Under the pieces are notes generated by a model. That model did no database searches. It saw nothing but the letters and a program-made list of their open reading frames with translations, and was not told the DNA's origin. A stretch of 64,000 nt of DNA from Gammaproteobacteria bacterium (lineage in GTDB: Bacteria > Pseudomonadota > Gammaproteobacteria > Poriferisulfidales > GCA-002705445): positions 195,588 to 259,587 of the forward strand of contig JABGXU010000008.1 in NCBI GenBank assembly GCA_018675635.1. The letters run 5' to 3'. A program made the translations under genes and the position numbers. This document shows, in pieces, positions 19,013 through 30,144 of this stretch (the stretch's first letter is position 1; each line of letters starts with the position of its first letter).

Positions 19013-19088
19013 TGGTGGCTCGGGGCAGAATTGAACTGCCGACACGAGGATTTTCAGTCCACTGCTCTACCAACTGAGCTACCAAGCC
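19013..19088 (-). tRNA. tRNA-Phe (GAA)
   Basis: Reverse complement reads GGCTTGGTAGCTCAGTTGGTAGAGCAGTGGACTGAAAATCC...TTCAATTCTGCCCCGAGCCACCA. It has a 7-bp acceptor stem, a GAA anticodon in a CTGAAAA loop, a T-loop GTTCAATTC and an encoded CCA. Confidence 0.95.
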
Positions 19089-22484: not shown

Positions 22485-23201
22485 ATGAGAAAAAATGGAA
22501 GAAAGCCTAACCAACTAAGGGATATAAGGATTACTAAGGATTATATTTCTCACCCAGAAGGATCGGTATTAGTCGAGTTTGGTAAAACAAAAGTTATTTG
22601 TAATGCCACAGTTGATAATAATGTTCCAAGATTTCTTAAGGGGCAAAGTACTGGTTGGGTTACAGCTGAATATGGAATGCTTCCAAGATCAACCAATGAA
22701 AGGATGAGAAGAGAGGCAAAAAATAGACAGAGTGGTAGAACCATGGAAATTCAAAGATTAATTGGGAGATCTTTAAGGTCTGCAGTAAATTTGGACAAAA
22801 TTGGCGAAAGAACAATAACAATTGATTGCGATGTAATTCAGGCTGATGGCGGAACCAGAACTGCGTCAATTACTGGGGGCTTTGTAGCGCTTTATTTAGC
22901 CGTCAGAAATTTAGATAGCGAAGATTTTAGTTCGGCTGATGCAATTAAGTCTTTTACTGGGTCTGTTTCGTTAGGTAAAGTTAATAATGAAATTGTTCTA
23001 GATCTTGATTACGAAGAAGATTCAAACGCTGAAACAGATATGAATTTTGTGATGAATGAAGATGGAAATTTTATTGAGATTCAGGGAACTGCTGAAGCTG
23101 GTTTTTTTTCGCAGGATGAATTAAATCAAATGATATCTTTGGCTACTGAAGGTATAAGATCTATTATTGAGATTCAAAAAAATGCTCTAAATAGTGTATG
23201 A
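22485..23201 (+). CDS. rph: ribonuclease PH
   Basis: 238 aa; [12 protein letters not shown]...[15 protein letters not shown] matches RNase PH. Confidence 0.95.
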
Positions 23202-23803
23202 ATAAAATTGTTATTGCCTCAAATAATCAGCATAAAATTAATGAATTTAATAAAATCTTAGGCCGCGAGGATGTGAAATTCATATCCCAGTCTGAGCTCA
23301 ATATTACTGAAGCAGCTGAGACTGGTTTAACATTTGTAGAAAATGCTATATTAAAAGCAAGAAATGCTTGTTTATTTTCAGGTATACCATCAATTGCAGA
23401 TGATTCAGGGATTGAAGTCGATGCTTTATCAGGAAGACCAGGTATTTATTCAGCTAGATATGCAGGTGATAATTGCGATGATTATGCAAACAATAAATTA
23501 TTACTAAAGGAACTTTCAAATGTTCCTTTTGAAAGAAGAAACGCAAGATATCATTGCGCAATAGTTTTTTTAAGTAAACATGATTGTTCAATGCCAAAAA
23601 TATTTAATGCAACATGGGAGGGTGTTATTGGAAGCAAGGAAATAGGTGATAATGGATTTGGTTACGATCCATTATTCTTTTTACCAACGCTAAATTGCAC
23701 CGCTGCTGAGCTCTCAGAAGATGAAAAAAATACAATTAGCCATCGTGGTAAAGCTTTGAATTTGTTTAAAAAAGAAATTAAGGAAATAATATTAAAATAC
23801 TAG
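23198..23803 (+). CDS. rdgB: dITP/XTP pyrophosphatase RdgB (Ham1 family)
   Basis: 201 aa; [14 protein letters not shown] and C-terminal SHRGKAL motifs; overlaps the rph stop. Confidence 0.9.
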
Positions 23804-23880
23804 CTATTTTTTATATAAATAATGTAAATTTTTATTGATTTTTTTAATTTTCTTCTAAATCTAGCATGGAATAAGGTTAT

Positions 23881-24243
23881 TTATTCACAGTTATTTTTTT
23901 GTCAACTTCTTTTATAAATTTATTAAAAATAAATTAGCGTTAAAAATTATTAATTTTTATTTAATAAAATCAATAAGTTATATTGTACAAAAAATGAACA
24001 ATTTAGTAATTATTAAAGAATGTTTGCCGTGTGATTAAAAAACTAAGTTTTTTGCACAGACTTATCCACAATTTTTGTGGATATAAAAAATATCCTTAAA
24101 AACAGTAATTTATATAGATATATTAAAATTTATTACCAAATAATAGGCTAACTATGGTAAAAATACCTACCAATTCATTATATTATTATTGTCTTATAGA
24201 CGATATTACTTGTAGGTATTTAGTTCTTTAGGTATTATTCACT
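23881..24243. promoter_or_regulatory. cluster of DnaA-box-like 9-mers in AT-rich intergenic region
   Basis: TTATTCACA at 23881-23889. TGTGATTAA (rc TTAATCACA) at 24030-24038. Perfect consensus TTATCCACA at 24062-24070. TGTGGATAT (rc ATATCCACA) at 24077-24085, forming an inverted repeat with the previous box. TTATTCACT at 24235-24243. Confidence 0.5.
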
Positions 24244-24267
24244 CTCTTAATTTACAATAAAGATATT

Positions 24268-24474
24268 ATGCAAAAAAATATTCATCCAAAATATAATGAA
24301 ATAGAGGTTGTTTGTAGTTGTGGTAACAAATTTATAACAAAATCTACATATAAAGACTCGGTTCTTTCTATAGACGTATGTTCTCAATGTCATCCTTTTT
24401 ATACTGGAAAGCAAAAGATATTAGATACCGCAGGTCAGGTAGATAAGTTTAAAAAGAGATATAGCAAAACATAA
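24268..24474 (+). CDS. rpmE: 50S ribosomal protein L31 (Zn-ribbon type)
   Basis: 68 aa; CSCGN...[10 protein letters not shown] zinc motif. Confidence 0.95.
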
Positions 24475-28556: not shown

Positions 28557-29912
28557 ATGATTAAAAAGTTATTGATAGCAAATAGAGGCGAAATAGCATT
28601 ACGTATTTTAAGAGCATGCAAGGATCTGGGAATTAAAACTGTAGCAGTTCATTCAGAAGTGGATAGAAATTTAATGCATGTAAAATTAGCTGATGAGTCT
28701 GTATGCATAGGCCCAGCTGACTCTAAAGAAAGTTATTTATCGTCGTCATCTATTATTAGTGCAGCAGAAATTACAAATTCTGATGCTATTCATCCTGGGT
28801 TTGGTTTCTTATCAGAAAATGCTGATTTTGCAGAACAGGTTATAAAATCAGATTTTATATTTGTTGGTCCAAAATCTGAAACAATAAGATTAATGGGGGA
28901 TAAAATCTTAGCGAAAAAAGCTATGAATGATGTAGGTATTACAGGAATACCTGGCTCTAAAGGACCAGTATCTAAAGACAATAAAGAAAATAAAAAAATA
29001 GCTAAATCTGTAGGTTATCCCGTATTGATTAAAGCATCACATGGTGGTGGTGGTCGCGGAATGCGAGTAGTAGAGCACGAACAAAACCTCGAAGAAGCTA
29101 TAAAGCTAACAAAAAATGAAGCCAAATTAGCATTTGGCAATGATACAGTTTTTATAGAAAAATTTTTAGAAACTCCAAGACATATAGAATTTCAAGTTCT
29201 TTGTGATAATTTTGGTAATTCTATATGTTTAGGTGAAAGAGATTGTTCAATGCAAAGAAAGCACCAAAAAGTTATCGAGGAAGCACCTGCTATTGGTGTA
29301 TCGGCCGTGGTCAGAAAAAAAATGATGAAATTGGTTGTTAGCGCATGTAAGAAAATAAACTACATTGGCGCAGGAACATTTGAGTTTTTATATCAAAATG
29401 ATGAATTTTATTTTATTGAAATGAATACAAGAATTCAGGTAGAGCATCCAGTAACAGAAATGATTACAGGTATTGATATTGTTAGGCAGCAATTATTGAT
29501 AGCTTCAGGGGAAAAAATTGGTTATTCACAAGAGCAAGTAGAAATAAAAGGCCATGCAATAGAGTGTAGAATAAATGCTGAAAATTCAAAAACTTTTATT
29601 CCATGTCCTGGAAAAATAGAGCAATTTCATGCTCCAGGTGGACCTGGAGTAAGGATGGATACTCATATATATAATGGTTATACAGTTCCCCCAAATTATG
29701 ATTCAATGATAGGTAAGCTAATATCATATGGTAATAATAGGAATGCTGCCATCAGAAGAATGAGTAACGCTTTAAACGAAATTGTTATAGACGGAATTGA
29801 GACTAATATTGATCTTCAAAAAAAATTAATTGTGGATCCTGAATTTCAAAAAGGTGGTTTTAGTATAAATTATTTAGAAAATAAATTTAAAAAAGAAAAT
29901 GGATCAAGATAA
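28557..29912 (+). CDS. accC: acetyl-CoA carboxylase biotin carboxylase subunit
   Basis: 451 aa ATP-grasp; [14 protein letters not shown] and [14 protein letters not shown] motifs. Confidence 0.95.
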
Positions 29913-30144
29913 GTCAAATAAATTACTTAGAGAATTTGTAAGACAATCAATGAAAGAGTATTTTAAAAAAACTGATGGTTTTCCAATAAATAATATATAT
30001 GGTTTAGTAGTTGGAGAGGTCGAAAAGCCATTAATTGAAGAGACAATTAAATATTGCAAAGGCAATCAGTCTAAAGCTTCAGAGATACTTGGTTTAAGTA
30101 GAGGTACTTTAAGGAAAAAAATGAAGCAGTATAATATTACATAA
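29899..30144 (+). CDS. fis: Fis-family DNA-binding protein
   Basis: 81 aa; C-terminal [29 protein letters not shown]; fis-purH-purD order as in Pseudomonas. Confidence 0.8.

Follow-up and report, generated by a model that had tools for sequence, protein, structure and literature searches.

A probable DnaA-reactivating-sequence-like module between rdgB and rpmE in an AT-rich gammaproteobacterium

DnaA-reactivating sequences (DARSs) are chromosomal non-coding sites, distinct from the replication origin oriC, that are represented in Escherichia coli by DARS1 and DARS2. Their defining feature is a pair of DnaA boxes, I and II, set in opposite orientation across a 5-bp space (PMC6868365). Two DnaA molecules bound head-to-head at these boxes release ADP; box III, needed for oligomer formation, is essential (PMC6868365; PMC11724364). 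In the accessible literature, DARSs have been studied experimentally only in E. coli, and DARS-like sequences outside it are recorded solely from its relatives (among them Vibrio, Shewanella and Aeromonas), next to uvrB and mutH as in E. coli itself; one review remarks in general terms on similar sequences in many proteobacterial species. Here we analyse a 64,000-nt stretch of a gammaproteobacterial genome (assembly GCA_018675635.1, contig JABGXU010000008.1, positions 195,588 to 259,587; hereafter the window), in which the AT-rich gap between rdgB and rpmE holds a cluster of DnaA boxes. A preliminary description of the cluster, made from the sequence alone, had offered several readings of it: a DARS- or datA-like locus, a DnaA-regulated promoter for rpmE, a replication origin, or the operator of an unrelated dimeric regulator. 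We find that the gap probably carries a DARS-type module, because the geometry of its boxes is that of E. coli DARS1 and DARS2 and because this geometry is deeply conserved across taxa. Most likely the module serves to control the timing of replication and is not the chromosome origin.

The core of the module shares a single scheme with DARS1 and DARS2: box I, 5 bp, inverted box II, 3 bp, box III. Measured against the DnaA-box consensus TTATNCACA, whose fifth position is degenerate (N), the middle box is perfect, and it opposes box I as TTATCCACA-ATTTT-TGTGGATAT, with the CACA ends of the two boxes facing each other. Box III, TTTTGCACA, has the orientation of box II and stands 3 bp upstream of it across the spacer GAC, where the E. 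coli elements have CCA and AGT. The reverse complement of positions 24050–24084 accordingly reads ATATCCACA-AAAAT-TGTGGATAA-GTC-TGTGCAAAA, to be set beside the cores that we read directly from E. coli K-12, namely TTATCCACT-ATTCC-TGTGGATAA-CCA-TGTGTATTA for DARS1 and TTATTCACC-TTTTC-TGTGGATAG-AGT-TGTGAAGAA for DARS2. Box III had been overlooked in the preliminary description and is a sixth box beside the five listed there. Those five 9-mers are all present, but box I had been placed at 24077–24085, one nucleotide too far downstream, and the spacer between the palindrome arms ATCCACA and TGTGGAT, given as six nucleotides, is in fact five (ATTTT).

We searched for this layout with a geometry detector that requires box I, 5 bp, box II, 3 bp and box III with at most two mismatches per box. 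Applied to the E. coli bioD–uvrB and DARS2 gaps, the detector returned exactly the DARS1 and DARS2 cores, and in the 64-kb window it returned exactly one site. It found no site in E. coli oriC, in datA or in the E. coli priA–rpmE gap. Like the E. coli elements, the site in the window is chromosomal and non-coding and, judged within 64 kb, distinct from oriC. The resemblance to DARS1 extends to the perfect middle box TTATCCACA and to a non-coding position upstream of a promoter; the neighbourhoods differ (bioD–uvrB in E. coli, rdgB–rpmE here), and the likeness is claimed for the boxes only.

It is the arrangement of the boxes, and not their number, that decisively sets the cluster apart from chance. 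Across the window both exact boxes (4 observed, 4.6 expected) and one-mismatch boxes (26 observed, 23 expected) occur at chance frequency. At the composition of the gap itself, the expectation is about one site carrying no more than one mismatch, with P = 0.003 for five or more such sites and P = 0.0003 for two exact ones, so that the earlier expectation of well under 0.1 was over-optimistic. Because 6% of simulated 64-kb sequences hold a 363-bp window with at least six such sites, box counts alone are only marginally above chance. By comparison, the window has a single occurrence of the composite pattern CACA-N3-TTATNCACA-N5-TGTGGATA, and 100 shuffled sequences have none, even when two mismatches are tolerated.

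Conservation was assessed on relatives of graded distance. Nine contigs with an identical L31 (L001–L009) have a 100% identical gap and are uninformative; the diverged relatives are carriers of RdgB homologues at 61–82% identity and, together with the window, make up a clade set of eight members. The gene order rph-rdgB-gap-rpmE-M48 peptidase-dsbD is kept in every diverged relative, with a gap of 456–500 bp, and in the aligned gap sharply conserved blocks alternate with variable AT-rich DNA. Positions 24060–24089 form the most conserved 30-mer of the 2.6-kb alignment (99% identity, compared with 91% for the best coding 30-mer). The boxes starting at 23881, 24050, 24062 and 24076 are invariant or vary solely at the degenerate fifth position: the far box at 23881 reads TTAT[T/G]CACA in the clade and box III reads TTTT[G/A]CACA. 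Within the sites of the module, substitutions hit this box position and, in the IHF and Fis consensus patterns described below, the N and W positions. The core is thus under strong purifying selection. Conservation in relatives had been named beforehand as the check on which the cluster could fail, and the core is kept both here and in distant taxa. The result divides the five boxes first listed, of which those at 23881, 24062 and 24076 are conserved and those at 24030 and 24235 are not DnaA sites. The match at 24030 is not conserved in relatives and is attributed to chance, and at 24235 the relatives read TTATTCATT or TCATTCTTT, which is promoter sequence. The positions of these and the other features are collected in Table 1.

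Table 1 Features of the rdgB–rpmE gap and related positions in the window (offsets are counted from the start of box III, 24050)
Feature	Position	Strand	Details
tRNA gene	19016–19088	−	66 bits; only Rfam match in the window at gathering threshold
rdgB	23198–23803	+	left flank of the gap
rdgB–rpmE gap	23804–24267		464 bp, 19% GC
T-rich block TTGATTTTTTTAATTTT	23832–23848		precedes the far box; moderate conservation within the clade
DARS-like module	23881–24084		about 205 bp, intergenic
Far DnaA box TTATTCACA	23881–23889	+	exact match to TTATNCACA; 169 bp upstream of box III
Direct repeat, left copy	23965–23983		19 nt; holds the IHF consensus
IHF-consensus site AATCAATAAGTTA	23968–23980	+	offset −82; pattern WATCAANNNNTTR
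Fis-consensus palindrome GTACAAAAAATGAAC	23985–23999		offset −65; pattern GNNNAWWWWWTNNNC / GnnYA-N5-TRnnC
Chance match TGTGATTAA (reverse complement TTAATCACA)	24030–24038	reverse	not conserved in relatives
Box III TTTTGCACA	24050–24058	+	one mismatch; orientation of box II; 3-bp spacer GAC
Box II TTATCCACA	24062–24070	+	perfect consensus; middle box; invariant in all relatives
Box I ATATCCACA	24076–24084	−	inverted relative to box II; 5-bp spacer ATTTT; invariant in relatives
Conserved block TAAAAACAGTAATTTATAT; direct repeat, right copy	24097–24115		AAAACAG..ATTTAT invariant in the clade
Probable rpmE promoter	24210–24238	+	−35 TTGTAG 24210–24215; 17-nt spacer; −10 TATTAT 24233–24238
False box TTATTCACT	24235–24243	+	overlaps the probable rpmE −10 hexamer
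rpmE	24268–24474	+	right flank of the gap; Zn-ribbon type A L31 (CxC...CxxC)
fis homologue	29899–30144		81-aa open reading frame

Beyond the clade, the module was sought in two further sets, and the counts that follow hold among the matches listed for each. The first comprises Gammaproteobacteria from an RdgB scan with at most 57% RdgB identity. Here rpmE lies near rdgB in six distant genomes, and boxes III and II stand 100–250 bp upstream of rpmE in all six; the full core, co-oriented with rpmE, is found 75–190 bp upstream in four (two with 1–2 mismatches). One of these cores, in L074, reads CAATTCACA-GAG-TTATCCACA-GATTT-TGTGGATAA. The second set comes from a metagenome scan with a generic core pattern, which returned at least 120 contigs (L101–L220 are those counted). 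Among them, in 29 of 120 the core is preceded by rdgB or hemW, followed by a co-oriented rpmE, or both, with rpmE mostly 75–190 bp away; 16 of 120 have the core between xseA (−) and exbB-exbD (+), as in L104, L120 and L172; 12 of 120 have it 84–530 bp upstream of priA, as in L105, L107 and L137; and about 62 of 120 lie in contexts that were left unclassified. The L31 clusters of the core-bearing contigs are named, among others, after Woeseiaceae, Steroidobacteraceae, Nevskiaceae, Chromatiales and Acidiferrobacterales, Gammaproteobacteria that are not close to E. coli. The module is found in distant Gammaproteobacteria of 29–70% GC, and the DNA upstream of the rpmE-context cores ranges from 14 to 62% GC.

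The module in the window also includes elements upstream of the core at fixed offsets. An IHF-consensus site, a Fis-consensus palindrome and the far box precede box III in the clade, and neither the far box nor the Fis or IHF sites formed part of the search pattern with which the metagenomic core loci were collected. Among the listed rpmE-context loci, 33 of 35 nevertheless have an exact TTATNCACA in far-box orientation at −168 to −180, with flanks that are not conserved, and 22 of 35 have an exact Fis consensus at −64 to −66, which takes the form GGTCA-N5-TGACC in the GC-rich ones. Other taxa show a reverse-orientation IHF near-consensus around −98, and several cores in the priA and exbB contexts carry a Fis-like palindrome at −66 and an IHF-like site at −97 to −100.

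The consensus sequences for IHF and Fis match 9 and 26 times, respectively, in 64 kb, so that a single match could be chance; the putative sites are supported by their conserved position and not by the individual matches. The IHF consensus is kept at −82/−83 in 7 of 8 clade members, which differ among themselves at four N positions, and lies at −86 in L074. The Fis consensus is exact in all 8 clade members, with variation at N positions only, apart from one A-to-T swap in the W run. A second Fis consensus at −160, abutting the far box, is present in six of the seven other clade members (L090 is the exception), and a 1-nt deletion breaks the copy in the window. The core is further bracketed by a 19-nt direct repeat whose copies are 84% identical and 132 bp apart. 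Its left copy holds the IHF consensus, and its right copy, the TAAAAACAGTAATTTATAT block, might be a second, weaker IHF-type site; compared with the core loci of other taxa, this block is not general outside the clade. The T-rich block, which in some relatives holds two GATTTTTTT units, has a superficial likeness to the E. coli 13-mers and lies away from any skew switch. The window encodes a Fis homologue, which scores 101.1 bits against the NCBIfam model NF001659 (Fis equivalog, cut-off 99). Its gene sits between accC and purH in the order fis-purH-purD. No IHF- or HU-type protein motif was found in the 64-kb window.

These accessory elements can be compared with those of the E. coli DARSs. 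DARS1 requires neither IHF nor Fis (PMC11724364), whereas in the module of the window both kinds of consensus site are conserved and, like the far box, stand at fixed offsets. With DARS2 it shares the core geometry, IHF-type sites 60–100 bp beyond box III, a high-affinity box about 170–185 bp away, a Fis-consensus site and a genome that encodes Fis. Placed in the frame of the window, the IHF sites of E. coli DARS2 (IBS1-2) lie at −87 (reverse) and −71 (forward) and its box V at −185; the IHF-consensus site here spans −82 to −70 and so falls, at sequence level, within the roughly 60–90 bp from the core that is expected of a DARS2 IHF site. The two elements differ in several respects. The essential Fis sites of DARS2 (FBS2-3) lie beyond IBS1-2, beside box V, where they overlap low-affinity boxes; an equivalent arrangement is lacking here, and the Fis-like palindrome is flanked by the core on one side and the IHF-like site on the other. 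The far box points the same way as boxes II and III, whereas box V of DARS2 has the opposite orientation, and box II is perfect here but imperfect in DARS2. Nor are the genomic positions homologous, since DARS2 occupies the rppH/ygdT–mutH gap and the present module the rdgB–rpmE gap.

The setting of the module adds to the case. The gap that holds it is the longest gene-free stretch of the window, whose median intergenic distance elsewhere is about 10 bp and whose overall GC content is about 29%, and we count a gap of this length in so tightly packed a region as support for a DARS-type module. Small open reading frames in the gap (22–25 aa) are unsupported as genes, since the pattern of conservation is not codon-like. 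A scan of the gap against Rfam returned no family, neither at gathering thresholds nor at E-values up to 10 (a weak miRNA match being noise). A conserved RNA structure is likewise rejected, as the covariation term is −0.12 kcal/mol and the candidate pairs are invariant, giving no covariation.

By analogy with the E. coli elements, the module would act as follows. DnaA, which is mostly ADP-bound after initiation, would bind the perfect box II and recruit a second DnaA at the inverted box I, 5 bp away, through a head-to-head AAA+ contact; in E. coli DnaA, Gln208 is a residue of this head-to-head interface and one of those needed for DARS function. A third DnaA would be recruited head-to-tail to box III, 3 bp away. 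The head-to-head pair would loosen the nucleotide pocket so that ADP leaves, and the resulting apo-DnaA would dissociate and rebind ATP, making more ATP-DnaA available to fire oriC elsewhere on the chromosome. Proteins at the IHF-like and Fis-like sites would bend the DNA and could tie activity to growth phase. Such bending could also return DnaA at the far box to the core, either for stimulation or for a feedback by ATP-DnaA like that at box V of E. coli DARS2. Each of these steps, including DnaA binding and nucleotide exchange, is inferred from what is known of the E. coli DARSs.

Several observations weigh against a DARS function. The support for it is at the level of sequence. In two distant genomes, L046 (7400–7440) and L056 (8340–8375), boxes III and II are kept and box I is lost, so that the head-to-head pair is not universal; the element there may be a decayed or functionally different derivative. 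Neither a DnaA nor an IHF gene lies within the window. The accessory order departs from that of E. coli DARS2, and the far box is reversed relative to box V. Finally, at about 29 metagenome loci (among the matches listed) and in all clade members the module without exception precedes rpmE and shares its orientation, which makes a transcriptional role possible.

This last point speaks for the view that the primary function of the module is transcriptional, with the DnaA boxes and the IHF- and Fis-like sites coupling the expression of rpmE (L31) to DnaA status or growth phase. The probable rpmE promoter corresponds to a block that reads CTTGT.G...TTTAGGTAT.ATTC in the relatives. A consensus scan for promoters and terminators gave nothing significant, the rpmE promoter scoring below threshold, and we infer the promoter from conservation and position. 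Analogous promoters, CTTGCG-17-TATATC, lie 10–110 nt after box I in GC-rich relatives, and in some of these no more than about 10 nt separate box I from the start of the −35 element. E. coli DARS1 likewise lies in a promoter-upstream region, that of uvrB, and Fis and IHF are classical promoter-upstream factors. Against this, the core with its Fis- and IHF-like sites also precedes the unrelated exbB-exbD and priA genes in the metagenomic contexts counted above, and the module is retained whichever type of L31, A or B, is encoded downstream. The distance from box I to the promoter ranges from about 10 nt to the 125 nt that separate the end of the core from the inferred −35 element in the window, whereas the internal spacings (5 bp, 3 bp, −65 and −169) are rigid. 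A variable promoter distance combined with rigid internal spacings argues for a self-contained nucleoprotein machine and not for an operator positioned relative to RNA polymerase. We therefore consider a primarily transcriptional role unlikely, although such a role and a DARS function are mutually compatible.

The rpmE gene itself varies within the clade. L090, L097 and L098 encode, like the window, a type A L31. In L093 (4071–4316) and L095 the syntenic rpmE scores as zinc-independent type B L31 (NF002462, 134–136 bits), and L091, L092, L094 and L096 are of type B by reading of the alignment. Because the DARS-like module and the promoter are retained upstream with either type, the rpmE paralogue seems to have been replaced in place within the clade.

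A datA-like locus, which would sequester DnaA or promote hydrolysis of DnaA-bound ATP and so regulate initiation negatively, is a distinctly improbable account of the cluster. E. coli datA, too, is non-coding and combines clustered DnaA boxes with an IHF site; it acts on DnaA at a place other than oriC (PMC11724364), and several conserved boxes together with an IHF-consensus site are its ingredients (PMC11724364). The high-affinity boxes, moreover, would titrate DnaA whatever else the module does. The organization of datA is nonetheless a different one, in which box 7/box 2, an IHF site and box 3 follow one another; it contains no inverted pair at 5 bp and no I-5-II-3-III triplet, both of which are present in the window, and it acts on DnaA in the opposite sense, by hydrolysis and not by nucleotide exchange. 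Four conserved boxes would give little titration capacity, and their geometry is exactly that of the ADP-releasing elements. Of the paired DARS/datA option first proposed, it is the DARS half that the shared geometry and deep conservation support.

A chromosomal replication origin had also been suggested, and some features of the gap recall one: an E. coli-type oriC is likewise an intergenic set of DnaA boxes with IHF and Fis sites, the gap is AT-rich, and the T-rich block lies upstream of the far box. An origin, however, should coincide with a switch in strand composition. We regressed the GC skew of each gene against its strand and the side of the gap on which it lies, within the 64 kb of the window. 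Left and right of the gap alike, the + strand showed a strand-independent excess of G (+0.035 ± 0.009, and +0.138 ± 0.020 for third codon positions), and the left-versus-right term was zero (0.001 ± 0.009; −0.018 ± 0.019 at third codon positions), where an origin predicts a change of sign as large as the constant term. Cumulative skew dips at blocks of minus-strand genes, and + strand genes are in the majority on either side of the gap. No motifs of DnaA, MnmG, GyrB, ParB, MnmE, RnpA or YidC were found in the window, nor were dnaA, mnmG or rpmH motifs found near the gap. Within the gap there is no AT-rich repeat family typical of an unwinding element, and the conserved boxes number only four, two of them inverted; the co-oriented arrays of low-affinity boxes, the unwinding element and the skew-switch position of an E. 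coli-type oriC are all unseen at this locus, and E. coli oriC for its part does not have the I-5-II-3-III geometry. Homologous modules elsewhere sit in DNA of 45–62% GC without an AT-rich element, and a DnaA motif lies nearby in only 1 of the 120 core loci listed. Given a skew that stays unswitched across the gap and a window free of dnaA and mnmG motifs, we reject the origin reading as very improbable.

Least credible of all is that the cluster arose by chance, is the operator of an unrelated dimeric regulator or encodes a structured small RNA: although box counts are marginal on a window-wide scan and the core holds an 8-3-8 palindrome of the kind that had prompted the operator proposal, the composite core is absent from the shuffled sequences, its conservation is well above that of coding DNA, box III and the far box are non-palindromic and yet fit TTATNCACA with variation only at N, and the gap has no Rfam match and no terminator-like site.

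A DARS-type module thus remains the favoured account of the rdgB–rpmE gap. The accessible literature, which excludes the original 2009 DARS paper, contains no description of an rpmE-linked DnaA-box or DARS-like site. What would be new here is that a DARS-type element occupies another locus, that its accessory region is rearranged and that its lineage is distant from E. coli. A broader proposal is possible but tentative, and we hold it with less conviction than its negation: that the rdgB/hemW–rpmE module is an ancient, self-contained DARS, widespread in basal Gammaproteobacteria and in this AT-rich marine clade, rigid in architecture, with a far box at −169 to −178, an IHF-like site, a Fis-like palindrome at −65/−66 and core spacers of 3 and 5 bp, separate from E. 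coli DARS1 and DARS2 and possibly their ancestor, and that the priA and exbB contexts hold paralogous copies which share with it a division of labour like that between DARS1 and DARS2.

The natural variation among these loci reveals which positions and spacings are constrained, and compact fragments of about 205 bp are suited to the established ADP-release assay. The locus also carries a practical caution, in that clusters of DnaA boxes in AT-rich metagenome-assembled genomes are unsafe for calling origins. For the biology of these organisms, the core is constrained more strongly than the neighbouring genes in a genome-streamlined marine bacterium, and the module recurs in basal Gammaproteobacteria. 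Such strong constraint and recurrence suggest that replication control has an old layer, important to selection, in which DnaA nucleotides are recycled on DNA.

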